From positions 64,346 through 128,345 of the forward strand of contig CAVSGZ010000010.1 in the NCBI GenBank assembly GCA_963727765.1: a stretch of 64,000 nt of DNA, given 5' to 3'. The DNA is from an uncultured Acidobacteriota bacterium. Its GTDB lineage: Bacteria; Acidobacteriota; Vicinamibacteria; Vicinamibacterales; Fen-181. The position numbers and the translations under genes were made by a program. Below, piece after piece: positions 1 to 17,246 of this stretch; the first letter of the stretch is position 1; the number at the start of each line of letters is the position of its first letter. Below the pieces are notes generated by a model that was not told the DNA's origin, made no database searches, and worked only from the letters and a program-made list of their open reading frames with translations.

Positions 1-795
1 TGGGTGGCCGTGTCGGCGCTGACGGGCGAAGGCGTCGAGAGCGTGCGGGAGGAGTTGCTGGCGCTCGCGCCGGCCGACTTCTTCGACAGCCGGCGGCTTG
101 TCGCCGACCTCGTGCCGCCGGGCGAGGTGGCGGTGCTCGTCGTGCCGATCGACAAGGAAGCGCCCAAGGGGCGGCTCATCCTGCCGCAGGTGATGTCGAT
201 CCGCGACCTGCTGGACGGGGAATCGATGGCGATGGTGGTCCAGGAGCGCGAGCTGGGGCGCGCGCTGGCACGGCTGTTGAAGCCGCCCGCGCTCGTGGTC
301 ACCGACTCACAGGCGTTCTTGAAGGTGGCGGCAGACGTGCCGGAAGACGTGCCGATGACCTCGTTTTCGATCCTGATGGCCAGGTTCCAGGGCGACCTGA
401 CCGAGCAGGTGAAAGGCACGCTCGGCATCGAGCGGCTGCGCGGCGGCGACAGAGTGCTGGTGGCCGAGGCCTGCACGCACCATCCCATCGGCGAGGACAT
501 CGGCCGCGTGAAGATCCCGCGCTGGCTCACGCAGTACGTGGGCGCCAAACTCGACTTCACGCACGTGCAGGGGCGCGACTTCCCGGTCGACCTGTCGCCG
601 TTCGGGCTGGTCGTCCACTGCGGCAACTGTGTCGGGAATCGGCGGGAGATGATGTCGCGCATTCACCGGTGCCGGATGGCCGGGGTGCCGATCACCAACT
701 ACGGCCTGACCATCGCCTACTCGCTGGGGATCTTCGAGCGGGCGCTCCGGCCCTTCCCGTCGGCGCTGGAGGCGATCGATGCCGCGCGGGCTTGA
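1..795 (+). CDS. hydF: [FeFe]-hydrogenase maturation GTPase HydF, C-terminal part (5' end outside window)
   Basis: ORF 4..795 is open to the window edge. It shows a GTPase-domain tail followed by the HydF cluster motif EACTHHP...HCGNC (CxH...HCxxC). It overlaps the hydE start by 17 nt. Confidence 0.85.
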   Translation, partial: WVAVSALTGEGVESVREELLALAPADFFDSRRLVADLVPPGEVAVLVVPIDKEAPKGRLILPQVMSIRDLLDGESMAMVVQERELGRALARLLKPPALVVTDSQAFLKVAADVPEDVPMTSFSILMARFQGDLTEQVKGTLGIERLRGGDRVLVAEACTHHPIGEDIGRVKIPRWLTQYVGAKLDFTHVQGRDFPVDLSPFGLVVHCGNCVGNRREMMSRIHRCRMAGVPITNYGLTIAYSLGIFERALRPFPSALEAIDAARA

Positions 796-1868
796 CAGCC
801 TCGATCACGATACGGTCGTGGCCTGGCTGCGCGAGGCCGACCCGGCCGAGCTCGAGAGACTCTGGGCGCGGGCCGACTTGGTGCGCGCGGCGCACGTCGG
901 CGACGCGGTCCACCTTCGCGGCCTGATCGAGATCAGCAATCACTGCGTCCGCGACTGCCTCTACTGCGGCCTCCGCGCCCACTCGGACGGGATTGTCCGC
1001 TACCGGATGTCGGCCGAGGAGATCCTTGCGTGCGCGCAGCAGGCGAAGCGCCTCGGCTACGGCACCGTCGTCATGCAGTCGGGCGAAGACCCCGGCCTGA
1101 CGCGCGAGTTCATTTCCGGGGTCATCCGGGCGATCAAGTCGGAAACCGGCCTCGCCGTGACGCTAAGCCTCGGCGAGCGGAGCGACGAGGAGCTTGCGGC
1201 GTGGAAGGCCGCCGGCGCCGACCGCTACCTGCTGCGGTTCGAGACGTCGGACTCCGAGTTGTACCGCCGCATTCATCCGTCACTGCCGAGCAGGGCGTCG
1301 GACCGCATCGCGCAGCTGGTCCGGATGCGCGACATGGGCTACGAGACCGGCAGCGGCGTCATGGTGGGGATTCCCGGCCAGACGTGGGAGATCCTGGCGC
1401 GCGACGTCGAGACGTTGCGCGATCTGGACATCGACATGATCGGGATCGGGCCGTTTCTGCCGAGCCCGCGGACGCCGCTCGGCGGCGCGGGCGCGGCGAA
1501 GCTCCGGGCGCCAGCCTTCGAGCAGGTGCCGAACGACGAGCTGACGACGCTGAAGGTGGTGGCGCTGACGAGACTGGTGTGCCCGGAGGCGAACCTGCCG
1601 AGCACGACGGCGCTCTCCACGCTCGACCCGGCGACTGGCCGCGAGCTCGGCCTGACGCGCGGCGCGAACATCGTCATGCCCAACCTGACGCCGCCCGAGT
1701 ACCCGCGTGCTGTACGAGATCTATCCGGGCAAGGCCTGCCTGCACGAGACCGCGGAGGTGTGCCACGGGTGTCTGCGGGGGCGCATCGCGTCGATCGGCC
1801 GCCATGTGGGAACCGGGCCGGGGGGACGGGCGCGTGCCGCAGGCCGACGGCTGACGGCTGACGGCTGA
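779..1868 (+). pseudogene. hydE: [FeFe]-hydrogenase maturase HydE (radical SAM), reading frame broken by one extra base at 1702-1704
   Basis: Radical-SAM motif CVRDCLYCGLR and overall BioB/HydE-like sequence. After NLTPPEY the ORF-track frame turns Arg/Gly-rich. Skipping one C of GAGTACCCGC restores YRVLYEIYPGKACLHETAEVCHGC, the typical HydE C-terminus, ending at TGA 1866-1868. Confidence 0.85.
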
Positions 1869-1880
1869 TGGCTGACGGCC
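1846..1880. repeat. Tandem heptamer array, 5 x GA(C/T)GGC(T/C)
   Basis: Read directly: GACGGCT GACGGCT GACGGCT GATGGCT GACGGCC. It creates plus-strand TGAs at 1852, 1859, 1866 and 1873, spaced 7 nt apart. Confidence 0.9.
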
Positions 1881-1889
1881 ACTCCTGTG

Positions 1890-3065
1890 TCACGCCTGCG
1901 CGAGTGCAGCAGGCGCCCCATCGGCCATCGGCCTTCGGCCCTCAGCCCCCGTGTTGAGCGTCACGGTGAACCTGCTCCCCACGTTCGGCTCGCTCTGCAC
2001 GGTGACGTCCCCGCCGTAGAGCTGCGCCAGCTTCTTCACGATTGACAGGCCCAGGCCGGTGCCGGGGATCGTGCGCGTGCGGTCGTTCTTGATCCGCACG
2101 AATTCCTGGAAGAGGCGCGACGCTTCCTCAGCCGAGAGGCCGATGCCGGTGTCGGCGACCTCGAGGCGCACGCCCCCATCGGTCGGCTCGATCGTCACGT
2201 CCACCCGTCCGCGGTCGCGGTTGTATTTCACCGCGTTGCTGACGAGGTTGTTGAAGAGGATCTCCATCTCTCCGCGATCGGCCACCACCGACACGCTGCC
2301 GGGCGCGTGCAGGGCCAGCGCAATGCCCCGCTCGGCAGCCGACTGGGCGGCCGTGTCGAACGACGCCTGCGCCACCTCCCGCAGGTCCAGTTCGACCATG
2401 TCGCGGCGTTTTTGGCCCGACTCGATCCTCGTCAAGTCGAGCAGTTCGGCGATCAGGCGCCGCATGCCACCCGAGCGGGTCAGCGCCCGCTCGATCACCT
2501 GCTGCAGCACCGCGGGATCGGTGCCGGCCGACCCGTCCTTGAGGATCTGAAGATACCCCTCGATGGCGGCGAGCGGAGCCTTCAGCTCGTGGCCGAGCAC
2601 CGAGATGAACTGGAAGCGGACCTGACGCTTCTCCTCGGCCAGCCGGCGCGCCTGCCGCTGGACCAGCAGGTGCTTGACCGCGCGCCTGATCGTCACGCGC
2701 AGTTCGTCGGGCGTGAACGGCTTGGGCAGGAAGTCGTAGGCGCCCTGCTTGGTGGCGTCGATGGCGGTCTCGAGCGTGGCGTAGGCGGTGATCATCACCG
2801 TGAGCGTGTGGTGCCCGCGCTCGTTCATCTGCCTGAGGACGTCGAGCCCGGAGATGCCGGGGAGCTTGAGGTCGAGCAGCAGAATGTCGGGCACCGCCTC
2901 GGCGATCCGCCCAATCGCCTCTTCGCCTGATTCTGCCGTCTGCACCTCGAAGCCGACCGTCGCATCCTCGGGTTCGGTCGCCACGGTGAATGAGCCGAGC
3001 ACGCGCGCCATCGCCAGCCGCATCCCCGTCTCGTCGTCCACCACGAGCACGCGCATCGTTTCCAT
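1890..3065 (-). CDS. Hybrid response-regulator/histidine kinase (REC-HisKA-HATPase_c)
   Basis: N-terminal receiver (VLVVDDE...DILLLDLKLPG), H-box HELKAPLAAIEGY, and ATPase motifs DTGIGL and GTGLGLSIV. Confidence 0.85.
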   Translation of the reverse strand: METMRVLVVDDETGMRLAMARVLGSFTVATEPEDATVGFEVQTAESGEEAIGRIAEAVPDILLLDLKLPGISGLDVLRQMNERGHHTLTVMITAYATLETAIDATKQGAYDFLPKPFTPDELRVTIRRAVKHLLVQRQARRLAEEKRQVRFQFISVLGHELKAPLAAIEGYLQILKDGSAGTDPAVLQQVIERALTRSGGMRRLIAELLDLTRIESGQKRRDMVELDLREVAQASFDTAAQSAAERGIALALHAPGSVSVVADRGEMEILFNNLVSNAVKYNRDRGRVDVTIEPTDGGVRLEVADTGIGLSAEEASRLFQEFVRIKNDRTRTIPGTGLGLSIVKKLAQLYGGDVTVQSEPNVGSRFTVTLNTGAEGRRPMADGAPAALAQA

Positions 3066-3084
3066 CTGTACCTCTGCCGAGGAT

Positions 3085-3116
3085 CATCAGATAGCGCAGG
3101 GCTTCAGCCCTGCGCC
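3085..3116. repeat. REP-like palindromic element, 32-nt copy identical to 17304..17335
   Basis: CATCAGATAGCGCAGGGCTTCAGCCCTGCGCC contains a 9-bp stem GCGCAGGGC/GCCCTGCGC with a TTCA loop. It supplies the last four codons and the stop of the receiver gene 3104..3508. Confidence 0.85.
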
Positions 3117-3508
3117 TTAACCGCCAGCAGCCTCTCGATCTCCCTCTTCAGCTGCTCGAACCGGATCGGCTTGGCCAGCACCGCGTCGGCGCCGATCCAG
3201 GCCCGCTCGGCGGCGCTCGCCGGGTCGAACACGAGGCCTGTCTCGCTGGTCACCGCCGTGACGAGGATCACCGGCAGGGCTGGCCGCGTGCGCTTGAGGT
3301 GGTGCGAGAGGATGAACCCGTCGTCGTGCTGCTCCATCATGAGGTCGAGGATGGCCAGGTCCGGCGTGAACGTGGAGAGGGCCTCTTCGGCCGCCGCGCG
3401 CGTGGTCGCCGTCGCCACCTCGAAGCCGGCGTTCTCGAGCTGGATCCGGTGCTGGAACAGGAAGTCCTCGTCGTCGTCCACCAGGAGAATCTTGGTCTTC
3501 GCGTTCAT
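3104..3508 (-). CDS. Stand-alone response-regulator receiver protein (CheY-like, no output domain)
   Basis: 134 aa with receiver signatures: KILLVDDDEDF, DLAILDLMM, and a conserved T/K region. Confidence 0.85.
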   Translation of the reverse strand: MNAKTKILLVDDDEDFLFQHRIQLENAGFEVATATTRAAAEEALSTFTPDLAILDLMMEQHDDGFILSHHLKRTRPALPVILVTAVTSETGLVFDPASAAERAWIGADAVLAKPIRFEQLKREIERLLAVKAQG

Positions 3509-3567
3509 AGGTCCCTTGACTCTTCACCTACCGGGCCGTCACGGCTCGGCCAGGCTCCTCTCCGACT

Positions 3568-5589
3568 TCAGGCGGCCGTCAGGCCCGTCGCCATGGCTTC
3601 CTCCCGGTGGCGCGGCAGGACCACGGTGAACGTGGTGCCTGTCGGCCCCGTGGCCGGGTCGGCGTTCGACTGCACCTTGATGTCGCCGCGGTGCATTTTG
3701 ACGATGCCGTAACTGACGGCCAGGCCGAGGCCGGTGCCCTTGCCAACCCCCTTGGTCGTGAAGAACGGCTCGAACAGCTTCGAGAAGTGCTCGGGCGGAA
3801 TGCCGACGCCGGTGTCGCCGACGATGACGCGCACGCGATGCGGCTCGTCCTCGGTGCGGATGGTGAGCCGGCCGCCGTTCGGCATCGCGGCGAACGCGTT
3901 GCTGATCAGGTTCACCAGCACTTGCGTGATCTGATCTGGATCGACCTCAACGAGCGGGTCGTGCTCGGCATGCTCGACCTCGATCTCCACGCCGATCGGG
4001 TGCGCGACGCCGCGAAGGCCGCGCTGCACCAGGTCCTGGAGCGAGACGTTCTGGTGCTCCACCTTGTTCTGGCGGGCGAAGTCGAGCAGGCCGGCGACGA
4101 TCTTCTTGCAGCGGTCCGCCTGCTCGACGACCATCGACAGGTCGTCGCGGTACTCGGGCTTGTCGCCGAGCTGCTCCTGCAGGAAGTGCGAGTACATGAT
4201 GACGACGCCGAGCGGGTTGTTCACCTCGTGCGCGATGCCGGCGGCGAGCTGGCCCATGCTGGCCAGCTTCTCGGAGCGCACGAGGGCGACCTGGGCGTTG
4301 GCCAGTTCCTCGTTCGACCGCCCCAGCTCGTGCACCGTGTTCCGCAGGTGCTCGATGCTGTGCGGCAGGCACATCTCCGGTTCGGCAAGGCCGCGGTAGA
4401 TGGCGCTCGCCAGCTCACGGCAGCTCGAGTAGCCGCACGCCCCGCAGTTGAGTTCGTTGGTCGGATCGGGCTTGCCCAGGTCGGTGAGCAGCCGCTGGAG
4501 CTCCTGCGGCGAGGGCACCGGCAGGCGCATGTCCTTCGAGTTGTACCGCCGCGTGAGATCGACGTCGGCGAACGACGCGATCCGCCTCTCCCACGCCGCC
4601 TCGTCGCTGCCGGCGATGCGGTTGCGCACGAACTGGCTGACGCGGGCGCGCCGGCCGAAGTGGGGCAGGTCCGAACTCATGCCGGGGCCCATCGTGCAGC
4701 CCCTGCAGAAGAGCACCTCGAGCAGCCGCGTGTCCATGAGGCCGGACTCGGCCTCCTTGATGGCCTGCGCGAACTCGGCCGGCCCCTCGGCCACCATCAC
4801 GTGGCCGGTGACCAGGTCCTCCTGAATGCCGGCCACCTGCAGCATGCCGCCGCTGATTGGAAACAGCGCGCCGCCGCGGCTGTGCGGAGGGTCGAACTCG
4901 CTCGGTTCGACGGCCGTGGAATCGACGCCGTGGGCGGCGATCATCTGGCGCAGCTCGGCAAACGTCAGCGCCTCGTCCACCTCGCCGTCCATCTCTGCCG
5001 TCTCGCGTTTCTTGGCGATGCACGGGCCGACGAAGACGATCTTCAGGCTCCGGCCGTGGTCGCGCCTGAGGAGGCGCGCGGTGGCCACCATGGGGGACAC
5101 GATGGGCGCGAGCGCAGAGGTGAGGTCGGGGAAGTAGCGCTCGACGTAGCCCACCACCGACGGGCACGTCGTGGCCACCCACAGCCGCTCGGAGTCGCGC
5201 GAGGCGAGGCGGCGGTATTCGAGCGCGACCAGCTCGGCGCCGAACGCCACTTCGTGCACCGCGTCGAACCCGAGGGCGCGCAGCGTCCCGACCACCGACC
5301 GGTAGTCGAGGTCGATGAACTCGGCCGGGAAGCTCGGGGCGACAATCGCCACCACCCGGTCAGGACCGGCGAGCAGCGCCTCGACGTCCTCCACCGCCGA
5401 CACCACGCGCTTGGCCGACTGCGTGCACACCTTGACGCAGACGCCGCAGCCGATGCACCGCTCCGGGAGCACCTGCGCTCGGAGGTCGGCGATGCGGATC
5501 GCCTTGGCCGGGCATTCGCGGACGCACTGGTAGCAGACGCGGCAGCGTTCGCCGATGGTGGAGACGAGAGGCGTGAGTTCGCGGTTCAT
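3568..5589 (-). CDS. Sensory [FeFe]-hydrogenase-like protein fused to a histidine kinase (HydS-type H-domain + Fe-S motif + HisKA/HATPase_c)
   Basis: Two CxxCxxCxxxCP ferredoxin motifs. H-cluster motifs are [15 protein letters not shown] and [10 protein letters not shown]. These are followed by CGACGYSSC...C, the H-box AHEVNNPLG, and the ATPase motifs DTGVGI and GTGLGL. The ATG overlaps the hydA stop (ATGA at 5586-5589). Confidence 0.85.
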
Positions 5590-7313
5590 ACGACGACATC
5601 CCGTGCTTCGTAGTGCGTGTGGAGCAGCTCATGGCTGACGCGCGACAGCGGCTTCCCGAGGAACTCGGCGTAGAGGCGGGCAATCGCAGGGTTCTGGTGC
5701 GACGATCGGAGCGCGGCGTCACGGTCGATCGCGTAGAGCGCCTGCATCCGCGCGCGGACGGCGTCCGGCGCCGCTCCCCGCGGCTGGCCGCCGCCGTTGA
5801 TGCAGCCGCCCGGGCAGGTCATCACTTCGATGAAGTGCAGGTCGCGTCGCCCGGCGCGCACCTGCTCGATGAGCGACCGGGCGTGGCCAAGGCTCGACAC
5901 GGCCGCCACGCCGACCTCCCGGCCCGCGATCGTGGCCCGGTGCTCTTTGATGCCCGTGAGGCCGCGCAGCGGCTGAAGCTTGAGCGAGGCCGGCGGCTCG
6001 CCCGTCAGCAGGAAGTGCGCCGTCCTGAGCGCCGCCTCGGCGACGCCGCCGCTCGCGCCAAAGATCTTGCCAGCCGAGGTGCGCTCGCCGAACGGCGTGT
6101 CCGGCGCCTCGGGCGCCAGGCTCGACAGGTCGAGACCGTGCATCCGAATCAGGCTCGCCAGCTCGCGCGTCGTCAGCACGGCGTCGATGTCGGGGCGGCC
6201 GTCACGTCCCATCTCCGGGCGGCCGGCTTCGAACTTCTTGGCCGTGCAGGGCATCACGGCCACGCTGAAGATGCGCCTCGGGTCGAGGTGCTCGCGCTCG
6301 GCGAAGAAGCTCTTGACGATGGCGCCGAGCATCTGCTGCGGGCTCTTGCAGGTTGAAAGATGGGGGATCATGTCCGGGTAGAACTGCTCGACGAACTTGA
6401 TCCAGCCCGGCGAGCAGCTGGTCATCATCGGCAGCGCGGCGCCGTCGCCCGCGGTGAGCCGCTGCACCAGCTCAGAGGCCTCCTCCATGACCGTGAGGTC
6501 GGCCGAGAACGACGTGTCGAAGACCCGCTTGAACCCCAGGCGGCGCAGCGCCGCGGTGAGCGCGCCATCAACGTCAGCGCCAGGCCTGGCGCCGAATTCC
6601 TCGGCGAGCGTCACCGAGACCGACGGCGCGTGCTGGACGACGACGAACGTCTCGGGGTCGGAGAGGGCGGCGCGGACCTCGTCGAGCGCGCTGTGCTCGG
6701 CCAGCGCGCCGGTGGGGCAGACGGCCACGCACTGGCCGCAGTTGACGCAGGAGCTGACGTTGAGCCCCTCGTCGAACGCCGGGCCCACGTGCGCGCGGCT
6801 GCCGCGGCCGATGAACTCGACGGCGCCGACCGACTGGATTTCCTCGCACACCCGGACGCACTTGCCGCAGAGGATGCACTTGGCCGGGTCGCGGACGATC
6901 GACGGGCTGGCCACGTCGAGCCGCGCCGTCGGGCGCCCGCCGAAGTACCGGCGCCTCCTGATGCCCAACTGCTGCGCCAGCGCCTGCAACTCGCAGTTGT
7001 TGTTGCGCGAGCAGTAGAGACAGTCGTCCGGGTGGTTGGCGAGCAGCAGCTCGACGAGCGTCCGCCGCGCGTCCACCGCCCGCGGCGAGTGCGTCTGCAC
7101 CTTCATGCCCGGCGCCACCGGGAATGCGCAACTCGGCACCAGGCCCCGCTGGCCCTCGACCTCCACCACGCACATCCGGCACGCGCCGCTCGGCGGCAGA
7201 CCGTCGTAGTGGCAGAGCGTCGGGACCGCGATCCCGGCGCGCCGCACCGCCTGCAGCAGCATCTCCCCGTCCTGCGCGTCCACGTTCAGGCCGTTGACCT
7301 CGATCTTGATCAC
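5586..7313 (-). CDS. hydA: [FeFe] hydrogenase catalytic subunit HydA (M3-type: 2Fe-2S, His-ligated 4Fe-4S, 2x4Fe-4S, H-domain)
   Basis: N-terminal NuoG-like 2Fe-2S fold (CHYDGLPPSGACRMC), HPDDCLYC..C, two CxxCxxCxxxCP motifs, and H-cluster motifs MMTSCSPGW, MPCTAKKFE and EVMTCPGGCINGGGQP. Confidence 0.9.
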   Translation of the reverse strand: MIKIEVNGLNVDAQDGEMLLQAVRRAGIAVPTLCHYDGLPPSGACRMCVVEVEGQRGLVPSCAFPVAPGMKVQTHSPRAVDARRTLVELLLANHPDDCLYCSRNNNCELQALAQQLGIRRRRYFGGRPTARLDVASPSIVRDPAKCILCGKCVRVCEEIQSVGAVEFIGRGSRAHVGPAFDEGLNVSSCVNCGQCVAVCPTGALAEHSALDEVRAALSDPETFVVVQHAPSVSVTLAEEFGARPGADVDGALTAALRRLGFKRVFDTSFSADLTVMEEASELVQRLTAGDGAALPMMTSCSPGWIKFVEQFYPDMIPHLSTCKSPQQMLGAIVKSFFAEREHLDPRRIFSVAVMPCTAKKFEAGRPEMGRDGRPDIDAVLTTRELASLIRMHGLDLSSLAPEAPDTPFGERTSAGKIFGASGGVAEAALRTAHFLLTGEPPASLKLQPLRGLTGIKEHRATIAGREVGVAAVSSLGHARSLIEQVRAGRRDLHFIEVMTCPGGCINGGGQPRGAAPDAVRARMQALYAIDRDAALRSSHQNPAIARLYAEFLGKPLSRVSHELLHTHYEARDVVV

Positions 7314-7323
7314 GATTGCCCCC

Positions 7324-9336
7324 TCACGCCGCCGTCACCGCGTCGAAGTGGCACACGTCGACGCACGTGCCACACGCCACGCACCGCTCGGGAATCACGT
7401 GGTGCGGGCTCTTGAGCGTGCCGACGATCGCCTCCGACGGGCAGTTCTTCACGCACACGGCGCAGCCGGTGCACTTGTCCTGGTCGATCGAATAGGTCAA
7501 CAGCTCGCCGCACGCCTTGGCCGGGCACCGCCGGTCGTAGACGTGCGCCTCGTACTCGTCGCGGAACCAGCGCAGCGTGCTGAGCACGGGGTTGGGCGCC
7601 GACTGGCCGAGGCCGCACAGGCTCGTGTCCTGGATGACCCGGGCCAGGTGCTCGAGGCTCATCACGCTCCGGAACCGCTCCAGCGCGTCGAAGTCCTTCT
7701 CGTTTCGGCGGCTCCGCGTGAGGCTCTCCAGGATCTCGAGCATCCGGCGCGTCCCCTCGCGGCACGGGATGCACTTGCCGCAGCTCTCACGCTGGATGAA
7801 GTCCATGAAGAACTTGGCGACGTCCACCATGCACGTCGTCTCGTCCATCACGACCAGGCCGCCCGAGCCCATCATGGCGCCGACGCGCTTGAGCGACTCG
7901 TAGTCGATGTCGATGTCGAGGTGGCTGGCCGGGATGCAGCCGCCCGACGGCCCGCCGATCTGCACGGCCTTGTAGGCCTTGCCGCCGGGGATGCCGCCGC
8001 CGATGTCGAACACGATCTGCCGGAGCGTCGTGCCCATCGCGACCTCGACCAGCCCGGTGCGGGCCACCTTGCCCGAGAGGGCGAACACCTTGGTGCCCTT
8101 GCTGGTCGGCGTGCCAATCCGCGAGAAGAACTCGTCGCCGCGGACGACGATCGTGGGGACGTTGGCGAGCGTCTCCACGTTGTTGATGACTGTCGGCTTG
8201 CCGAACAGGCCGCGCACGGCCGGAAACGGCGGCCTCGGCCGGGGCATCCCGCGGCGCCCCTCGATGCTGTGCAAGAGCGCCGTCTCCTCGCCGCACACAA
8301 ACGCCCCGGCGCCCTGCTTGAGCGCCACCTCGAGATCGAAACCCGAGTCAAGGATGTTCGGACCGAGCAGGCCGAACGCCCGAGACTGGCCGATCGCGTG
8401 CTGCAAGCGCGCTATGGCCAGCGGGTACTCGGCGCGGATGTAGACGTAGGCCTTCGTCGCGCCGATCCCGTACGCTGCAATCGCGAGACCCTCGAGCAGC
8501 CGGTAGGGGTCGCCCTCGATCACCGCCCGGTCCATGAACGCGCCCGGGTCCCCCTCGTCGGCGTTGCAGACCATGTACTTCTGATCCGCCGACTCCTTGT
8601 GGGCGATCGTCCACTTGGTCCCGGTCCTGAACCCGCCGCCTCCTCGACCCCTCAGGCCGCTCTGTTCCACGACTCCGCAGACCTCGGCCGGCGTTTGCTC
8701 GCGCAGCGCCTTGGCCAGGCCGGTGTAGCCGCCGCGCGCCAGGTACTCGTCGAGGCTCGCCGGATCGACGAGTCCACAGTTGGCGAGCACCAGCCGCTTC
8801 TGTGGCGCAAAGAAGGGATGCTCGTCGAGAAACGGCACATCCTCCCAGCACGTCGTCCCGTCCTGGCGGAACTGCCCGAGCGGGGAGACCGGCCACGTCT
8901 TCGCACCGCCGAACACGGCATCGAGCAGGCCCGGGACCAGCGTCTCGGTGACACGCGGAAAGCTCAGGCGCGGGCGGCCGGGCAGCTGCACGTCGACGAG
9001 CGGCTCCTCGACGCACAAGCCGATGCAGCCGACCTCGACGACCTCAGCCCGGAGGTCGGCGTGCTGGTCCAGGTAGCGGCGGACCGCGGCGCGCGTGCGG
9101 CCTGCGCCGGCGCCGAGGCCGCAGGTGCCGGTGCCGATGAAGACGATTGGGCGCTCGAGCCCCTCGCGGAGAGCTCGCGCGCGGACAGCCTGGCGCCTGG
9201 CGCGGCAGGCGTCGCTCTCGTGGCAGAGCGGACCGTTCGAGAGGCACTCAATGAGCTGGGGGCAGGGACGCGACGGCGCGTGCCAGCATTCCGGGCAGCA
9301 CGGTCCGAACGTGAACGGCGAAGGTGAGGCGGTCAT
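7324..9336 (-). CDS. hydB: NuoF-like flavoprotein subunit HydB of HydABC-type hydrogenase (FMN/NAD(H) site, Fe-S domains)
   Basis: GGGFRTGTKW and ESCGKCIPCREG match the NuoF core. There is a thioredoxin-like 2Fe-2S region and a C-terminal 2x CxxCxxCxxxC. The start overlaps the hydC stop (ATGA). Confidence 0.9.
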   Translation of the reverse strand: MTASPSPFTFGPCCPECWHAPSRPCPQLIECLSNGPLCHESDACRARRQAVRARALREGLERPIVFIGTGTCGLGAGAGRTRAAVRRYLDQHADLRAEVVEVGCIGLCVEEPLVDVQLPGRPRLSFPRVTETLVPGLLDAVFGGAKTWPVSPLGQFRQDGTTCWEDVPFLDEHPFFAPQKRLVLANCGLVDPASLDEYLARGGYTGLAKALREQTPAEVCGVVEQSGLRGRGGGGFRTGTKWTIAHKESADQKYMVCNADEGDPGAFMDRAVIEGDPYRLLEGLAIAAYGIGATKAYVYIRAEYPLAIARLQHAIGQSRAFGLLGPNILDSGFDLEVALKQGAGAFVCGEETALLHSIEGRRGMPRPRPPFPAVRGLFGKPTVINNVETLANVPTIVVRGDEFFSRIGTPTSKGTKVFALSGKVARTGLVEVAMGTTLRQIVFDIGGGIPGGKAYKAVQIGGPSGGCIPASHLDIDIDYESLKRVGAMMGSGGLVVMDETTCMVDVAKFFMDFIQRESCGKCIPCREGTRRMLEILESLTRSRRNEKDFDALERFRSVMSLEHLARVIQDTSLCGLGQSAPNPVLSTLRWFRDEYEAHVYDRRCPAKACGELLTYSIDQDKCTGCAVCVKNCPSEAIVGTLKSPHHVIPERCVACGTCVDVCHFDAVTAA

Positions 9337-9806
9337 TTCGCGGCCGCCTCCCGGCGAATCGAACGGACGATCTTCGTCGCGCGCTCAGCCGTGGCGCCGG
9401 CGTGGAACTCGCCGTTGACCGCCATCAGCGGCGCCAGCCCGCACGCGCCGAGGCACGCGACCACCTCGAGGCTGAACAGGCTGTCGCGCGTCGTCTGACC
9501 CGGCTTGATCTGGAGCGTGCGCTGCAGCGCGTTGAGCGTCTGGAGCGAGCTCTTCACGTGGCACGCCGTGCCGCGGCACACCTGGATGTGGTAGCGGCCG
9601 AGCGGCTGGAACCGAAACTGGTTGTAGAAGGTGGCGACGCCGTACACCTTGCTGGCCGGCAGGCGCAGGTGGCGGCCGATGCGGATCACCGCGTCGCGCG
9701 ACAGGTAGCCGTGCGCCGCCTGCACCTCCTGGAGCAGCGGGATGAGCGCGTCGCGGCGCCCGGGCGGGTACTTGCAGACGATGGGTTCGAGGTCTGGTGT
9801 GATCAT
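9333..9806 (-). CDS. hydC: NuoE-like [2Fe-2S] subunit HydC
   Basis: 157 aa with the NuoE pattern CRGTACHV...CLGACGLAP. Confidence 0.85.
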   Translation of the reverse strand: MITPDLEPIVCKYPPGRRDALIPLLQEVQAAHGYLSRDAVIRIGRHLRLPASKVYGVATFYNQFRFQPLGRYHIQVCRGTACHVKSSLQTLNALQRTLQIKPGQTTRDSLFSLEVVACLGACGLAPLMAVNGEFHAGATAERATKIVRSIRREAAAK

Positions 9807-9817
9807 CGGAGTCGAGG

Positions 9818-10465
9818 TTACGGACGTTCGTGCGCGTAGTACGCGACCCGGTCGAGCGCCATCATGAGATCGACGTTCTCGACGTGAAGGCCCACGGGCA
9901 CGCGCAGCCGAACGGGAGCGAAGTTGAGCAGGCCCTTCACGCCGGCCAGCACCAGTTGGTCGCAGACAGACTGCGCCTCGGCGGCCGGCACGGCGATGAC
10001 GCCCACGTGGATCTTCTCGCGGGCGATGACCTCGGTCGTCTGGTCGGCGGGGTAGCAGCGGCAGCCGTGGAGGACGCGCCCGGTCTTCTCGGGGGCGCGG
10101 TCGAAGGCCGCGGCAAACCGGATGGGCTGGCGGTTGGCGTAGTAGGCGAGAATGGCGCGCCCGAGGTTGCCGACGCCGACCAGCGCGACCGCAGTCTCGA
10201 CCGAGCGGGCGAGGACGTCGTCGATGGCGGCGACCAGGTCTGCGATGGCGTAGCCGCGCCTGGGGCTGCCGCTGAAGCCGATCGTCATCAGGTCGCGACG
10301 GACCTGGGCGGCGGTGGTGACGGCGAGGGCGGCGAGCTGGTGCGAGAAGACCTGTCGGGCGCCGTCGGCCAGCTCTTCCTGAAGGAGCCGTCTGTAGAGG
10401 CTGAGCCGGCCGATGGTGTTGACGGGGATGGTCTGGCGCGGGCTTGAGGAGGGAGTGGATGGCAT
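9818..10465 (-). CDS. rex: Redox-sensing transcriptional repressor Rex
   Basis: Winged-helix N-terminus (TIGRLSLYRRLL) and Rossmann motif VGVGNLG. The ORF track begins at GTG 10483, but I prefer ATG 10465 (MPSTPSS...). The start remains ambiguous. Confidence 0.85.
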   Translation of the reverse strand: MPSTPSSSPRQTIPVNTIGRLSLYRRLLQEELADGARQVFSHQLAALAVTTAAQVRRDLMTIGFSGSPRRGYAIADLVAAIDDVLARSVETAVALVGVGNLGRAILAYYANRQPIRFAAAFDRAPEKTGRVLHGCRCYPADQTTEVIAREKIHVGVIAVPAAEAQSVCDQLVLAGVKGLLNFAPVRLRVPVGLHVENVDLMMALDRVAYYAHERP

Positions 10466-10506
10466 ATCTGTGAACCGCCTCACACTGTGAAACAGTTCAC
10501 AGATAT
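10464..10506. promoter_or_regulatory. Putative Rex operator upstream of the rex-hydCBA operon
   Basis: The core CTGTGAA-ACAG-TTCACAG at 10485-10502 matches the Rex box TGTGAA-N4-TTCACA. It is nested in a perfect 12-nt inverted repeat, ATATCTGTGAAC (10464-10475) and GTTCACAGATAT (10495-10506). Confidence 0.6.
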
Positions 10507-10588
10507 CCTATCGCTCAACTGATTGTGGCGTCAACCCCTCCACATGGGCAGGCCGCAAACGAGGACCCGCTGCCCGCCGACCCCTTTT

Positions 10589-10616
10589 CCCTCGTCCCTC
10601 GTCCCTGACCCCTGAA
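10589..10616. repeat. Tandem heptamers CCCTCGT CCCTCGT CCCTGAC CCCTGAA
   Basis: Read directly. It shares the string TCCCTGACCCCTGA with the array at 37570-37597 and abuts the hydG stop codon. Confidence 0.8.
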
Positions 10617-12011
10617 TCAGCAGTAGACGTCCCTTTCCCCCGCCCTAACCTTGTCCATCAGTTGGATGGCCCGCTGCCTCGGCCAGTCGTCCATCGTCTC
10701 GAGCGCCTCGGCGATGCACCGGTCGCCGATCGCCCGCGTCTCAGGTGACGCATAGTCGAGCAGGTATTCCAGGAAGGTGGACAGCCCGTTGGGGTCGCAG
10801 TGCTGCTTGATGTCGCCCGGCTTGGCCAGGTCCATGAAATCGGCGCCGGTCCGGCCCAGCCGGTAGCAGCCGGTGCAGAACGACGGGATGTAGCCGAGCG
10901 AGGCCACGTCGCGCACGACCTCGTCGAGATTGCGGTGGTCGCCCAGGCAGAACTGGCTCGCGTCGAGTCGCTCGTCCTCGGTGTAGCCGCCGGGGTTGGT
11001 CCGGCTGCCCGCCGAGATCTGCGACACGCCGAGGGCGAACGTCTCCCGGCGGATGTTCGCCGATTCGCGCGTCGACATGATGATGCCGGTGTAGGGGACC
11101 GCGAGCCGCAGGATCGCCACGAGCTTGCGGAAGTCGATGTCGCTCACCGCGTGGGGAGGATGGCTCGCCACGTCCGATCCGGTCGCCGGCTCGAGGCGCG
11201 GCACGCTGATCGTATGCGGGCCGACGCCGTGCCGCCGCTCGAGATGGCGAATGTGCTGCATCAGGGCGAGCAGCTCGAACCGCCAGTCAAAGAGGCCGAA
11301 CAGCACGCCGATGCCCACGTCGTCGATGCCGGCTTCCATCGCCCGGTCCATCGCCGTCACGCGCCAGTCGTAGTCGCGCTTCTTGCCGCCCAGGTGCACC
11401 GCCGAGTAGGTCTGGTGGTGGTAGGTCTCCTGGAACAGCTGGTAGGTGCCGATCTTGCGCGCCTTGAGTTCGCGGAACTCGTCGAGCGTCAGCGGCGCGA
11501 CGTTGGCGTTGACGCGGCGCACCTCGCCGGGGCCGTCGGTCACGCCGTAGATCGTGTCGATGCAGTCGAGGACGTAGGAGAAACCCTGGCGCGGGTACGA
11601 TTCGCCGGCCACGAGCAGCACCCGCTTGTGACCCTGGTCGATCAGGATCCGCACCTCGTGCGCGATCTCCTCTTGCGTCAGGGCGCGCCGGACGAGCGCC
11701 GCGTTTCGCGCGCGAAAAGCGCAGTAGGTGCACTCGTTGGCGCACAGGTTCGAGACGTACAGCGGAGCGAACAGCACGAGCCGGCGGCCGTAGATCGTGT
11801 CTTTCACGAACTGCGCCGCGGCGAACAGCTCGCCGAGCAGCGCCGGGTCGCTCACGTTCATCAGCACGGCGATCTCGGCGGCCTCGAGGCCGTGGAGCTC
11901 CCGCGCCTTCGCCAGCACCGCGCGGACGGCGGCGGCGTCTGCGGTCCCGGCGAGTTCGAGTGTGTGGAAGATGGCAGGTTCGTCGATGAAGGATCCGTTA
12001 GTAGATGTCAT
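10617..12011 (-). CDS. hydG: [FeFe]-hydrogenase maturase HydG (radical SAM tyrosine lyase)
   Basis: Radical-SAM CANECTYCAF and a C-terminal auxiliary-cluster region, CTGCYRLGRTGADFMD...C. The ORF-track N-terminal extension is Arg-rich, so I set the start at ATG 12011 (MTSTNGSFIDE). Confidence 0.9.
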   Translation of the reverse strand: MTSTNGSFIDEPAIFHTLELAGTADAAAVRAVLAKARELHGLEAAEIAVLMNVSDPALLGELFAAAQFVKDTIYGRRLVLFAPLYVSNLCANECTYCAFRARNAALVRRALTQEEIAHEVRILIDQGHKRVLLVAGESYPRQGFSYVLDCIDTIYGVTDGPGEVRRVNANVAPLTLDEFRELKARKIGTYQLFQETYHHQTYSAVHLGGKKRDYDWRVTAMDRAMEAGIDDVGIGVLFGLFDWRFELLALMQHIRHLERRHGVGPHTISVPRLEPATGSDVASHPPHAVSDIDFRKLVAILRLAVPYTGIIMSTRESANIRRETFALGVSQISAGSRTNPGGYTEDERLDASQFCLGDHRNLDEVVRDVASLGYIPSFCTGCYRLGRTGADFMDLAKPGDIKQHCDPNGLSTFLEYLLDYASPETRAIGDRCIAEALETMDDWPRQRAIQLMDKVRAGERDVYC

Positions 12012-12150
12012 ACCCGTCTCCCAGTATACGTCCGCCGGGGTCGGTCGCCGGTGCCCGGGAGGCGCTGAAGCCGTGTGATACCATGTGAGGTCTCGACCTC
12101 GACCTCGCGGCAGCGGCGCCGATTCCTGCTGTTCCAGGACGGGCCTCCTC

Positions 12151-14913
12151 ATGCAGACCGACATCCCGAACGCCCCAACGACCCCAGGGGCCGCCCACCG
12201 CGGCCGGCATCCGCTCGACGCGCTGTTCGCGCCGCGCACGGTGGCCCTCATCGGCGCCTCTGAGGAACCTGGCTCGACCGGGCGCGCGCTCCTGTGGAAC
12301 CTCATCAGCAGCCCGTTCGGCGGCACCGTGTACCCGGTGACGCCGGACCGGCCTCAGGTGCTGGGCATCCGGGCGTACCCGTCGATCGCCTCGCTGCCGG
12401 AGCCGATCGACCTGGCCCTCCTCGCGATGCCCGCTCCGGCCGTGCCCGACCTCGTCGAGGAATGCGCGGTCGCCGGCGTGGCGACGGCCGTCATCGTGTC
12501 CGGCGGGTTCCGCGAGACAGGGGTCGACGGCCTGGCACTCGAATACCAGATCCTCGACATCGCCCGCCGCACCGGCCTGCGCATCGTCGGCCCCAACTCG
12601 CTCGGCGTGATGAGCCCGGTCTCGGGACTCAACGCCACGAGCGCCGCCACCTCCGCCCGCACGGGCAGCATCGCCTTCATCAGCCAGAGCGGCGCGCTCT
12701 CGAACGCCGTGCTCGACTGGAGCCGCAAGATGACGGTGGGCTTCTCCCACTTCGTCTCGGTCGGATCCATGCTCGACATCGGCTGGGGCGATCTCATCGA
12801 CTACATGGGCGACGATCCCCGCACTAGGAGCATCGTCATCTACATGGAGTCGATCGGCGACGCCCGCGGCTTCCTGTCGGCGGCCCGCGAGGTGGCCTTC
12901 AGCAAGCCGATCATCGTGCTCAAGGCGGGGAGGTCGACGGCGGCGGCCCGCGCCGCCGTGTCGCACACGGGCGCGCTGACCGGCAGTGACGCGGTGCTCG
13001 ACGCGGCGTTCAGGCGAGGCGGCGTGCTGCGGGTCGGCTCGATGTCGGAGCTGTTCGACATCGCCGAGGTGCTCGGCAAGCAGCCGCGGCCGCGCGGCCC
13101 GCGGCTCGCCATCGTGACCAATGCCGGCGGGGCGGGCGTGCTGGCCACCGACGCGCTGCTCGCCAACCATGGCGAGCTGGCGACACTCTCTCCCCAGACG
13201 ATCGCGGCGCTTGACGCGGAACTCCCGCAGCACTGGAGCCACGGGAACCCGATCGACGTGCTCGACGCCGCGACGCCGGAACGGTACGTGAGGGCGGTGG
13301 AACTGGCGGCGGGCGATCCGAATGCCGACGGGCTGCTGGCCATCCTCACACCCCAGCCCTCCGCCGAGCCGACCCGCACCGCCGAACTGATGCAGCAGCG
13401 CATGGCCGGCTGCTCCAAGCCGGTCCTGGCGGCGTGGATGGGCGGCGTGGAGGTCGGGGCCGGCGGCGCGGCGCTGACGCGGGCCGGCATCCCCACGTTC
13501 GAGGACCCTGACACCGCGGCGCGCGTGTTCACGTTGATGTGGCGCCACAGCTACGTCCTGCGCGGCCTGTACGAGACGCCGTCGCTCGCGGTCGACGCCG
13601 ACGGCGCGACGCCTCGGGAGCGGGTCGAGGCGATGGTGCAGGCGGTGCGCGGCGCCGGGCGCACGCTCATGACGGAGGTCGAGTCGAAGCAGGTCCTGGC
13701 TGCCTACGGGATCCCGGTCGTCGAGACCCGGGTCGCCACCGCTGAAGACGAAGCGGTGGCCTGCGCGCGCGACATCGGCTTCCCGGTCGTCCTGAAGCTT
13801 CTCTCCGAGTCGATCACGCACAAGACCGAGGTCGGCGGCGTGCAGCTCAACCTGCAGGACGACGCCTCGGTCCGCCAGGCCTACCAGCGCATCCGCGCGG
13901 CTGTGGCGGAGAAGGCCGGCGCGGGGCACATGCGCGGCGTCACGGTGCAGCCGATGATCGCGCTCGACGGGTTCGAGCTGATCGTGGGCAGCCTCGTGGA
14001 TCCGCAGTTCGGCCCGGTCGTGATGTTCGGCTCCGGCGGCCACCTGCTCGACGTCTATGTCGACCGCGCGCTCGCGCTCCCGCCGCTCAACACGACGCTC
14101 GCGCGGCGGATGATGGAGCAGACACGGATCTTCAAGGCGCTCGGCGGCGTGCCGGGGCGCCGGCCGGTGGACTTGGCGGCGCTCGAGGGCGTGCTGGTGC
14201 GGTTCAGCCAGATGATCGTCGAGCAGCCGTGGATCCGGGAGATCGACATCAACCCGGTGCTCGCCTCCGCCGACCGGACTGTGGCGCTCGACGCGCGGAT
14301 CGTCCTGCACGGGGCCGACGTCGCGCTCGAACGGATTCCACGCCCGGCCATCCGCCCGTACCCGGCGCAGTATGTCGGCGGCTGGACACTGCGCGACGGG
14401 CGCGAGGTGACGATCCGCCCAATCCGGCCCGAGGACGAGCCGCTCATGGTCGCGTTCCACGGGCGGCTGTCGGATCGGTCGGTCTACTTCCGCTACTTCC
14501 ACCTGCTGAAGCTCAATCAGCGGGTGGCGCACGACCGGCTCACGCGGATCTGCTTCATCGACTACGAGCGCGAGATGGCGCTGGTGGCCGAGCGCCGCGA
14601 TCCCGCGTCGGGCGAGCTCCAGATCATGGGCGTCGGCCGGTTGACCAGGCTGCACGGCACCACGGAGGCCGAGATCGCCGTGCTCGTGGCTGACGAGTTC
14701 CAGCGCCAGGGGCTCGGCGGCGAGCTGATGCGCCGGGTCATCGCGGTGGCGGGCGCGGAGCGCCTGACGCGGATCCACGGCGACGCGCTCACCGAGAACG
14801 CCGAGATGATCAGGCTCGGCGAGCGACACGGCTTCACGGTGTCGGCGAGGCCTGACGATCCGCAAGTGGTGCGCCTGTCGCTCGAACTCCCGCTGGAGCC
14901 TTCCTACCCGTGA
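12151..14913 (+). CDS. Pat-like bifunctional protein: ADP-forming acyl-CoA synthetase (CoA-binding + ATP-grasp) fused to a GNAT acetyltransferase
   Basis: N-terminal CoA-binding region ([12 protein letters not shown]), succinyl-CoA-synthetase-like and ATP-grasp regions, and a C-terminal GNAT ([10 protein letters not shown]). Start set at ATG 12151. The stop overlaps the hypF GTG start (GTGA at 14910-14913). Confidence 0.8.
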
Positions 14914-17246
14914 CCAGCGCCGAGACGGGACCGCAGCGCCTGCGCGTGCAGATTCGCGGAGCGGTGCAGGGAGTTGGCTTCCGGCCGTTCGTCTACCGGC
15001 TCGCCCGCGAGCTGGATCTCGCCGGCTGGGTGATCAATTCGTCGTCGGGCGTCGTCATCGAGGTCGAGGGGCCGCCCGCGACGCTCGAGCAGTTCCTGCT
15101 GCGCGTGGTCCGCGACTGCCCGCCGCGCGCCATCGTGCAGGGGACCGAGTCGGCCTATTTCGACGCGGCCGGGTTCCGCGGGTTTGAGATCCGCGAGAGT
15201 GTCGGCGGAGAGAAGACCGCGCTCGTGCTGCCCGACATCGCCACCTGCCCGAACTGCCTTCAGGACCTGGGCGACCCGACCAACCGCCGCTACCGATATC
15301 CGTTCACCAACTGCACCAACTGCGGTCCGCGTTTCTCGATCATCGAGTCGCTGCCCTACGACCGGCCGAACACGACGATGGCCGGCTTCCCGATGTGCGA
15401 GGCGTGCCGGCGCGAATACGAGGATCCGGGCGACCGCCGCTTCCACGCACAGCCCAACGCGTGCCCGGCGTGCGGGCCGCACGTCGAGCTCTGGGACGCG
15501 GATGGGCGCGTGCTCTCGACCGGCGACGAGGCGCTGCGCGCGGCCGAGGCGCGCATCACCGCCGGAAGCATCGTCGCGGTGAAAGGGCTCGGCGGGTTCC
15601 ACCTCGTCGTGGACGCGCGCGACGATACGGCCGTCCGGCGGCTGCGGCTCGCGAAGGCGAGGGAGGAGAAGCCGTTCGCGTTGATGGCTCCGTCGCTGGC
15701 CTCGATCGAGCGGCTCTGCGAATTGGGGGAGCGCGAGCGGCGCCTGCTGACCTCGCCCGAGTCGCCGATCGTGCTGCTGAAGGCGCGGTCCGCGCCCGTC
15801 GCCGATGCCGTCGCGCCGTCGGTGGCGCCGGGCAATCCGTATCTCGGCGTGATGCTGCCGTACACGCCACTGCACTACCTGCTGCTCGGCGACTTGGGCT
15901 TCCCGGTCGTGGCGACGAGCGGGAACCGCAGCGACGAGCCGATCTGCACCGACGAGCGGGAGGCACTCGAGCGGCTGCGCGGCCTGGCCGACGTGTTCCT
16001 CGTGCACAACCGGCCGATCGCCCGACACGTGGACGACTCGGTCGTGCGCCTGGCGGCCGGGCGCGAACTGGTGCTCCGCCGCGCGCGGGGCTACGCGCCG
16101 CTGCCGGTCGTGCTGGCCTCTGCCGGGCCGCCGGTGCTGGGTGTCGGGGCGCACCTCAAGAACGCGGTGGCTTTCTCGGTCGGAGCGAACGTCTTCATCA
16201 GCCAGCACGTCGGCGACCTGGAGACGGCCGAGGCATTTGGCGCGTTCGAGCGGGTTATCGGCGCGTTCGAGCGGATGTACGAGGCCGCGCCGGCGGAGGT
16301 GGCCTGCGATCTCCATCCCGATTACCTGTCCACGGGTTACGCCCGACGCCGCGGCCTGCCGGTCCGGGCGGTGCAGCACCATCTCGCGCACGTGCTGAGC
16401 TGCATGGCCGAGAACGAGATCGCGCCGCCCGTTCTTGGCGTATCGTGGGACGGAACGGGCTTTGGCCCGGACGGCACGATCTGGGGCGGCGAGTTCCTGT
16501 TGGTGACCGGGTCTGGGGTCGCACGCGTGGCCTCGTTCCGCCCGTTCCCGCTGCCGGGGGGCGATCGGGCCGTGCGCGAGCCGCGGCGCTCGGCGCTTGC
16601 GGCGCTCCAGGAGGCCTTCGGCGCCGACGCCTGGACGATGACGGACCTGCCGGCCGTGTCGGCATTCGACGAGTGGGAGCGCCAGGTCCTGCGGACGATG
16701 ATCGAACGGGGCGTGAATTCGCCGCGGACTTCCAGCGTCGGGCGGCTGTTCGACGCGGTGGCGTCGCTCGCCGGCCTGCGCCAACTGGTGCGCTACGAGG
16801 GCCAGGCGGCGATGGAACTGGAATTCGCCCTCGACGGCATCTCGGTCGAGGAGGGCTACCCGATTACGATCGGACCGACCGCGGGGCCACTGTCGGGTCA
16901 GAATGAGGAGCCGCGCGCGCTGTCGGCGCCGCCCGCGTTCGTGCTCGACTGGACGCCGCTCGTCCGCGCGGTCGTGGCCGACCTGCGGGCCGGGTGTCCT
17001 GTCGGCGTGGTTTCGGCGAAGTTCCACAACGGCCTGGCGGCGGCCGTGGTCGAGGTGGCGAAGATCGTCGCCATCGAGCGGGTAATGCTCTCGGGCGGGT
17101 GCTTCCAGAATCGGTACCTGCTCGAGCGGACGATCGACACGCTGCGCGCGGCGGGATTCAGGCCCGCGTGGCACCAGCGGGTCCCTCCCAACGACGGCGG
17201 GATCGCGCTCGGCCAGGTGGCGGCGGTCGCCTGGAATCTGGCGTGA
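14910..17246 (+). CDS. hypF: [NiFe]-hydrogenase maturation carbamoyltransferase HypF
   Basis: Acylphosphatase domain ([14 protein letters not shown]), two Zn-finger pairs (CPNC...CTNCGPRFS and CEAC...CPACGP), and YrdC and Kae1-like domains. Confidence 0.9.

Follow-up and report, generated by a model that had tools for sequence, protein, structure and literature searches.

A histidine kinase with a putative sensory [FeFe]-hydrogenase domain, encoded behind hydA in an uncultured Acidobacteriota bacterium, is a candidate H2 sensor for HydABC

In a stretch of 64,000 nucleotides from an uncultured Acidobacteriota bacterium (assembly GCA_963727765.1, contig CAVSGZ010000010.1, positions 64,346 to 128,345; this whole stretch is called the window below), the gene directly downstream of hydA encodes a protein in which an [FeFe]-hydrogenase-like domain is fused to a histidine kinase. 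The question raised by this locus is what such a protein, which we call the sensor, does beside the hydrogenase HydABC. A first-pass annotation had named it a candidate sensor kinase, for H2 or redox, that reports on HydABC, and this proposal was supported by the invariant residues, the maturase genes and the synteny described below. In our assessment the protein is probably a sensor histidine kinase, cytoplasmic and soluble, with a group C-type (HydS-like) sensory [FeFe]-hydrogenase input that signals on H2 for HydABC. According to the list of open reading frames (ORFs) and the sequence, its ORF of 673 amino acids begins with ATG and lies at 3568..5589 on the minus strand, an orientation left unstated earlier. 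The G+C content of the window is about 70%, so long spurious ORFs are common in it. The Pfam matches spanned the whole ORF and were far above chance, which bears out the initial description of one ORF with stacked modules, and the same architecture is found in homologs of 58-92% identity.

The hydrogenase half begins with an N-terminal 2x[4Fe-4S] ferredoxin domain (residues 13-58; 5416..5553, minus strand) that was recognized by Pfam Fer4 families. Its eight cysteines, C16/C19/C22/C26 and C45/C48/C51/C55, were all invariant in the set of 40 homologs (57-91% identity) used here to assess conservation. The H-domain follows at residues 78-302 (4684..5358, minus strand) and matched Fe_hyd_lg_C (PF02906) with an E-value of 6.9e-44 and 150.8 bits, against a Pfam cut-off of 22.1. 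In the AlphaFold2 monomer model the H-domain showed a predicted local distance difference test score (pLDDT) >90, and its best Foldseek matches were [FeFe] hydrogenases, with CbA5H, DdH, the HydA proteins of T. kivui and T. maritima, and CpI matching at about E 1e-22 to 1e-17. The register of the H-cluster residues was taken from HMMER alignments to the structures of CpI, T. kivui HydA and T. maritima HydA, and the CpI numbering was checked on the printed coordinates, in which 'TSCCP' is T297-P301. The sequence 'ATTCP' of the sensor aligned with TSCCP, placing T141 at the proton-relay residue C299 and C142 at the cluster ligand C300 (CpI numbering). The second motif aligned with MPCxxKKxE, with G188 at the second-sphere residue M353, C190 at the ligand C355, K193 at K358, which contacts CN-, and E196 at the contact residue E361. 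The third, 'LFCRGC', aligned with MxCxxGC, with L293 at the second-sphere residue M497, C295 at the ligand C499 and C298 at the bridging ligand C503; one residue is deleted between these last two ligand cysteines. The contact residues P231, S232 and P324 correspond to P85, S86 and P166. The four ligands C142, C190, C295 and C298, together with the equivalents of P231, S232, P324, K358 and E361, were invariant in the 40 homologs, as was G188, and at position 141 T, S, N or P was found but in no homolog Cys. In a wider clade of direct-kinase proteins Cys was found at position 299 in 0/26, and each ligand Cys was kept in 25-26 of the 26. The proton pathway of group A enzymes (C299-E279-S319-E282) and the residues M353 and M497 were not retained at any position, the aligned residues being T141, Y125, A161, R127, G188 and L293, respectively.

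A helical extension behind the H-domain (residues 303-379; 4453..4683, minus strand) leads to a C-terminal cluster motif that matched the Pfam family FeS (PF04060) at residues 380-409 with an E-value of 1.7e-10 (4363..4452, minus strand). C382, C385, C390 and C407 form an exact Cx2Cx4Cx16C motif, and all four were invariant in the homologs. For each of the predicted clusters, the two [4Fe-4S] at the N-terminus, the H-cluster and the [4Fe-4S] at the C-terminus, all the binding residues are present. The profile searches and the alignment to CpI thus upheld what had initially been read from the letters of this half: two ferredoxin motifs, an [FeFe]-hydrogenase H-domain with its four cluster-ligating cysteines, a Thr in place of the proton-relay Cys, and an extra C-x2-C-x4-C...C motif. 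Residues C299, M353 and M497 are altered in putative sensory enzymes, M353 being most often Gly (PMC10055695), and the sensory hydrogenases of groups C and D wholly lack the proton pathway and possess a C-terminal Cx2Cx4Cx16C motif (PMC8163306). The substitutions of the sensor match the pattern of TmHydS and TamHydS (PMC8163306, PMC10055695), which favors a HydS-like reading. By its sequence, the N-terminal half resembles an [FeFe] hydrogenase that has been slowed down, and it lacks the fast proton pathway of the catalytic enzymes.

The same residues bear on the possibility that the H-domain is a relic, binding only a [4Fe-4S] cluster or nothing and serving as the dimerization or scaffold domain of an ordinary kinase. 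Hydrogenase-like proteins of the Nar1/NARF type, which lack a 2Fe site, do exist. In the sensor M497 is replaced by Leu and the L3 motif is one residue shorter, and an mSystems survey reported that the H-cluster motifs were hard to find in some group C1 sequences (PMC11406978). A domain of this kind would, however, have to be reconciled with the invariance of the four ligands and of the K358, S232, P231, E361 and P324 equivalents, with CxxC spacing and a Leu that are conserved family-wide under clear purifying selection, and with the adjoining maturase genes. We consider a relic domain very improbable.

The kinase half comprises a HisKA dimerization and phosphoacceptor domain (residues 445-507; 4069..4257, minus strand; E 3.9e-14), with H454 in the motif AHEVNNPL, and a HATPase_c catalytic domain (residues 550-660; 3610..3942, minus strand; E 4.2e-25) with intact N, G1, F and G2 boxes. 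Both domains scored above the Pfam cut-offs, and H454, N560/N564, D592-G594-G596, F609/F610 and G618-G620-G622 were invariant or nearly so among the 40 homologs; the claim of a complete HisKA/HATPase_c kinase was therefore confirmed by profile search and column check. The closest solved relative of this half was the cytoplasmic domain of ZraS (E 1e-34, 225 residues aligned), which was also the best structural match found by Foldseek for the C-terminal part of the AlphaFold2 model. The NCBIfam models of AtoS and ZraS matched residues 431-665, with scores far below their equivalog cut-offs (AtoS 216 bits against 646; ZraS 183 bits against 479). The kinase half is predicted to be catalytically complete and NtrB/ZraS-like. 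It shares its kinase core with the ZraS/AtoS/NtrB class, but its input domain is entirely different and it has no membrane anchor. A Cys in the second helix of the dimerization and histidine phosphotransfer (DHp) domain, C494 (about 4108-4110, in ADRCKKIV), was invariant together with R493 in all 40 homologs.

Between the C-terminal cluster and the kinase, a Pfam search of residues 303-463 at E<=10 matched FeS and HisKA only and no PAS family, and the AlphaFold2 model showed helices only, and no PAS fold, from residue 303 to the kinase. Since the same Pfam search detects PAS in those relatives that have one, this negative result is meaningful, and the absence of a PAS domain noted at first reading was confirmed. 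A hidden PAS domain was rejected on these grounds; just 47 residues separate C407 from H454. This segment is predicted to carry a coiled-coil (signaling-helix) linker that runs into the dimerization helix (residues ~410-444; 4258..4362, minus strand). The spacing from C407 to H454 was 47 residues in 117/117 close homologs measured. Among 29 distant direct fusions, taken as 50%-identity representatives, the Cys-to-His spacing was 33, 40, 47, 54 or 68 residues in 26, so that the linker lengths of these 26 differ by whole heptads and fall into the same class modulo 7. In the homolog alignment columns 412, 415, 419, 422, 429 and 436 were uniformly hydrophobic in an a/d pattern, and the conserved polar residues N426 and Q433 occupy 'a' positions of the linker heptads. 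The fixed spacing and the heptad pattern point to a rigid dimeric coiled coil in which the register matters. We infer that a continuous dimeric coiled coil joins the cluster domain to the kinase, like the signaling helices of other kinases.

In a protein search >100 proteins, full-length and 58-92% identical, shared the domain set of the sensor; species-representative genomes yielded 75 loci on scanning, and in 68 of these the sensor kinase is full-length. The closest relatives are from metagenome-assembled genomes of Acidobacteriota (Vicinamibacterales). Copies at about 40-58% identity occur in Caldisericia, Hydrogenedentota, Latescibacterota, Holophagae, Thermoanaerobaculaceae, Myxococcales, Phycisphaerae, Planctomycetota, Gemmatimonadota, KSB1, Ignavibacteriales, Melioribacteraceae, Riflebacteria and Bacillota. 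Where enough flanking sequence was present, hydA was located directly upstream of the sensor gene in 56/62 loci, hydB and hydC upstream in 50/53 and rex upstream in 35/53; a receiver gene followed directly downstream in 60/65 and a receiver-kinase gene downstream in 64/64. The receiver-kinase is thus linked to the sensor more faithfully than hydA is. The order rex-hydC-hydB-hydA-sensor kinase-receiver-receiver/kinase is conserved in >10 phyla as a predicted module.

The junction with hydA deserves separate mention, since the first-pass annotation had stressed that the ATG of the sensor overlaps the hydA stop (ATGA). The overlap is present in the window (gtcgtATGAacc), and the TGA of hydA and the ATG of the sensor share four bases (junction gtcgtcgtATGAaccgc). 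It is not conserved in related loci: the gap between the two genes was mostly 0-150 nt and at most ~500 nt in about 55 of them, and in the closest relative (92% identity) it was 268 nt. ATGA translational coupling as a family trait was therefore rejected, the adjacency on the same strand being what is kept, and the four-base overlap appears to be a local detail. The ATG itself is supported by close relatives that align from residue 1 and in which the start there is separate from the hydA stop.

Proximity to hydA also lends itself to another reading, in which the protein is a working subunit of HydABC ('BfuT') that takes part in catalysis or electron transfer and whose kinase regulates the enzyme locally. 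The sensor gene is directly downstream of hydA, with overlapping stop and start codons in the window, a survey published in mSystems in 2024 calls such a protein the T subunit (PMC11406978), and TmHydS and TamHydS keep a low H2 turnover (PMC8163306). However, none of the positions of the group A proton pathway is kept, the gaps of 0 to about 500 nt speak against a fixed coupling to hydA, and the receivers linked in 64/64 and 60/65 loci point to phosphotransfer signaling. The solved HydABC complexes that we found are, moreover, listed without such a chain. We regard a role as enzyme subunit as improbable.

The faithful linkage of the receiver and the receiver-kinase suggests a two-kinase relay, the final output of which would lie outside the cluster. 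What the N-terminal module can be connected to was surveyed in a set of 50%-identity representatives, the 150 closest to the N-terminal 430 residues, with 10 examples scanned against Pfam and with simple rules on motifs; the counts of architecture classes are approximate, and several entries classed as 'other', with about 240-270 residues past the cluster motif, are probably direct kinase fusions. Downstream of the module we found a kinase directly, a PAS-kinase, a GAF-GAF-kinase, or a sigma-54 AAA+ activator with a helix-turn-helix, attached either directly or via PAS; PAS alone, the classical M2f form, was the largest class. In a rough neighbor-joining tree the direct-kinase proteins grouped together. 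Five relatives (P0152, P0186, P0154, P0198 and P0169) carry the ferredoxin/H-domain/FeS module on sigma-54 activators or on a GAF-GAF-kinase, and the fusions to sigma-54 activators would be one-component H2-responsive transcription activators. With outputs so varied, the module behaves as a portable input domain without need of PAS. A broader proposal, which we put forward tentatively and hold to be somewhat less probable than its opposite, is that the H-domain and the C-terminal [4Fe-4S] cluster constitute a self-contained, PAS-independent H2 input that drives its outputs mechanically via a phase-locked coiled coil, and that it feeds an obligate relay of sensor kinase, receiver and receiver-kinase which travels with HydABC across >10 phyla as a mobile H2-feedback cassette.

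The reading of the protein as an H2-sensing kinase for HydABC is favored by the invariant H-cluster ligands and CN-/CO-contacting residues, by the absence of the group A proton pathway, by the HydE, HydF and HydG genes that flank the operon, and by the hydA gene directly upstream in 56/62 loci. In such a mechanism HydE, HydF and HydG, encoded beside the operon, would install the 2Fe subcluster, and the H-cluster would bind H2 and split it slowly. The H-domain and the C-terminal cluster domain would then change their redox state and/or conformation, and the dimeric coiled coil would carry this change to the DHp helices and switch the autophosphorylation of H454. The phosphate would pass to the two downstream receivers, the stand-alone one and that of the second kinase, and these may set the level or activity of HydABC, or linked fermentation genes, by H2 pressure. 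Rex would additionally gate transcription of the whole operon by NADH/NAD+.

Four points weigh against this reading. The exchange M497L in CpI impaired insertion of the 2Fe subcluster (cited in PMC10055695), an objection that is tempered by TamHydS, which has Leu at 497 naturally and is active. Residues 407-455 had a pLDDT <50 in the AlphaFold2 monomer model, and as the model is unreliable there, the coiled coil rests on sequence periodicity. The conserved module contains no DNA-binding regulator other than Rex. Finally, the redox state of TamHydS's C-terminal cluster was unchanged by H2 (PMC13104023); the redox-relay step may thus be mistaken, and the route may be conformational instead.

The last of these points is shared by the main rival explanation, besides which the enzyme subunit and the relic domain are minor: the protein may sense redox state or O2 via its FeS clusters, with the H-cluster being secondary. 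The input would then be either the ferredoxin-like pair, charged by ferredoxin or by HydABC, or an O2-labile C-terminal [4Fe-4S] cluster as in NreB. FeS-based kinases such as NreB exist; the sensor has three accessory clusters by its motifs, of which the C-terminal one adjoins the kinase helix, and its hosts comprise Acidobacteriota of soil and sediment together with other lineages that are likely facultative. The lack of an H2 response of the TamHydS C-terminal cluster (PMC13104023) would fit as well. On such a view, however, the strict conservation across phyla of the H-cluster's four cysteines and the residues contacting CN- and CO is hard to explain, and so is the tight linkage with hydABC and the maturases; in addition, Rex already serves the operon as a dedicated redox sensor. 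We consider sensing of redox state or O2 unlikely, and keep H2 as the favored signal.

How the sensor relates to known sensory hydrogenases was assessed by comparison with the two enzymes studied, TmHydS and TamHydS. TmHydS (Thermotoga maritima, group C, M2f) shares with it the 2x[4Fe-4S] domain, the H-domain, the C-terminal Cx2Cx4Cx16C motif, the missing proton-relay Cys and a Gly for M353, and group C genes of the TmHydS kind are often in one operon with a group A hydrogenase (PMC8163306, PMC10055695). TmHydS, however, has a PAS domain at its end and lacks a kinase, whereas HisKA/HATPase_c stands directly behind the cluster domain in the sensor, and positions 299 and 497 are Ala and Ser in TmHydS but Thr and Leu here. 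TamHydS (Thermoanaerobacter mathranii, group D, M2e) shares the absence of PAS, the same C-terminal motif, Leu497 and the lack of a group A proton pathway; it ends at the cluster domain, with any kinase separate, whereas the kinase of the sensor is fused. The M353 position is Ser or Thr in group D and an invariant Gly (G188) here, and about 265 residues of kinase follow the cluster, both of which differ from group D. The first three traits by which group C is defined (PMC8163306) are found in the sensor, namely the N-terminal 2x[4Fe-4S] domain, the H-domain without C299 and the C-terminal Cx2Cx4Cx16C motif; the PAS domain, a descriptor of the group in recent papers (PMC11216029, PMC13104023), is not. 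By these three traits the predicted protein belongs with group C (HydS-type), and group D is ruled out. A similar kinase-fused protein was placed in C3 (PMC11406978), and in HydDB a putative 'histidine kinase-linked' subgroup was named C1 (PMC5037454).

Published surveys also qualify the novelty implied by the first-pass annotation, which was overstated. The annotation had stated that the studied examples are PAS-linked, which is true of TmHydS but not of TamHydS, a group D enzyme without PAS (PMC8163306). It had further stated that a kinase-linked subclass is only predicted; HydDB does list it as a putative subgroup (PMC5037454), but the hydA-adjacent fusion had already been described from genomes (PMC11406978). 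In that description 'BfuT' of group C3 (sub-type V clusters) joins a hydrogenase-like and a histidine-kinase domain and is encoded directly after hydA/bfuA, as the sensor is; it was reported, from genomes only, for Hydrogenedentota and Caldithrix abyssi (WP_006928132.1). The likeness of WP_006928132.1 to the sensor is drawn from the published description, and a Hydrogenedentota locus in our set (L019; 58% identity) has the same gene order as the window. The paper (PMC11406978) is silent on the missing PAS, the coiled-coil link, the two receivers and Rex, with 0 occurrences of 'response regulator' and 'Rex'. In the literature searched we found no biochemistry on the kinase-fused form. The architecture is thus already known from genomes and common there, and the sensor adds a member; what our analysis adds is a direct link locked in heptads, a receiver and a receiver-kinase as obligate partners, the control by Rex, and the breadth of output fusions.

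A histidine kinase paired with the regulatory [NiFe] hydrogenase controls hydrogenase expression. The regulatory [NiFe] hydrogenase and HoxJ (HydDB group 2b, PMC5037454) follow the same logic as the system proposed here, a slow hydrogenase serving as H2 receptor, but the metal site and the fold are unrelated and receptor and kinase are separate, whereas here they form one polypeptide. HoxJ, furthermore, carries a PAS-like domain (PMC8163306). The sensory role of [FeFe] hydrogenases of this kind is called putative in reviews (PMC8924675). TmHydS and TamHydS have no built-in output to measure, whereas direct wiring to a kinase would offer a simple read-out, in that autophosphorylation and phosphotransfer could be compared in the presence and absence of H2, and the heptad-locked linker is a concrete structural hypothesis for how the signal exits. 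The cassette of rex, hydCBA, sensor, receiver and receiver/kinase suggests how soil and sediment bacteria may match NADH-linked H2 production to ambient H2. The finding will not surprise specialists, yet it gives a good handle on whether sensory [FeFe] hydrogenases sense H2.

On the minus strand of the window hydG comes first and then, past an intergenic region, rex, hydC, hydB and hydA; the sensor gene is next, followed by those of a stand-alone receiver and of a receiver-HisKA-HATPase protein. From the other side, hydF and a probable hydE converge on this cluster on the plus strand. The rex gene (9818..10465, minus strand), for an NADH/NAD+-responsive repressor, matched NCBIfam Rex at E 6e-58. 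The listed rex ORF begins at GTG 10483; the likely start is ATG 10465, since Rex operator boxes overlap the listed GTG. These are two tandem boxes of the form TGTGA-N6-TCACA at 10469..10501 (2 found against 0.03 expected in the window), with the sequences TGTGAACCGCCTCACA and TGTGAAACAGTTCACA, and they fit the Rex operator consensus. Boxes at the same place were found in 23/57 related loci, nearly all Acidobacteriota loci included. A sigma-70-like promoter, TTGACG-18-TAGGAT (10505..10534, minus strand), lies immediately upstream of the boxes and is the only such site within 1500-12400, and the operon scan found no terminator-like site at any gene junction from rex to the last gene. A single promoter-like site and the absence of internal terminators suggest one Rex-gated operon from rex to the second kinase. 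The NtrB-like character of the kinase and the fusion of relatives to sigma-54 activators prompted a search for a sigma-54 promoter as well; TGGCAC-N5-TTGC was matched about as often as expected by chance and nowhere in the operon, and this candidate was rejected.

The catalytic [FeFe] subunit HydA (5586..7313, minus strand) matched NCBIfam NF040763 with 798.8 bits and T. kivui HydA1 at E 1.8e-175, and NCBIfam names it 'NADH-dependent, group A6'. At residues ~296-304 it reads 'TSCSPGW' instead of the canonical 'TSCCPGW', which by simple register puts Ser at the C300 ligand position of CpI. Loss of a cluster ligand was rejected as explanation, since A. woodii HydA1 (7q4v), which is solved and active, has this motif too, and TSCSP is considered a natural variant of HydABC-type enzymes. 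The NuoF-like flavoprotein subunit HydB (7324..9336, minus strand) and the NuoE-like 2Fe-2S subunit HydC (9333..9806, minus strand) were identified by Pfam and NCBIfam; HydB carries the NCBIfam domain 'NuoF prefix CCxxC' at residues 13-51 and a C-terminal 2x[4Fe-4S] ferredoxin domain. The stand-alone receiver of 134 amino acids (3104..3508, minus strand; Pfam Response_reg) is encoded 59 nt downstream of the sensor and has D11-13, D55 and K112. The second kinase, of 391 amino acids (1890..3065, minus strand), was assigned by Pfam and motifs as receiver-HisKA-HATPase_c with the receiver N-terminal, a domain order that resembles Leptospira LvrB.

Among the maturases, hydG (10617..12011, minus strand) matched TIGR03955 at E 3.8e-157. 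The mechanically called hydG ORF (569 amino acids, GTG at 12326) is probably over-extended: the profile covers residues 110-567 only, the ATG at 12011 gives a HydG of 464 amino acids, and the longer ORF overlaps a divergent gene starting at 12085. The gene of the C-terminal part of HydF, cut by the window edge, lies at 4..795 (plus strand) and contains the HydF_dimer and HydF_tetramer domains. The radical-SAM gene adjoining it (779..1861, plus strand; Pfam Radical_SAM) is probably hydE, a name given by position. On the far side of hydG, at 12085-17246 on the plus strand, an ADP-forming acyl-CoA synthetase-GNAT acetyltransferase fusion of 942 amino acids (Pat-like) is followed by HypF, a maturase of [NiFe] hydrogenases, so that the genome probably also encodes a [NiFe] hydrogenase.

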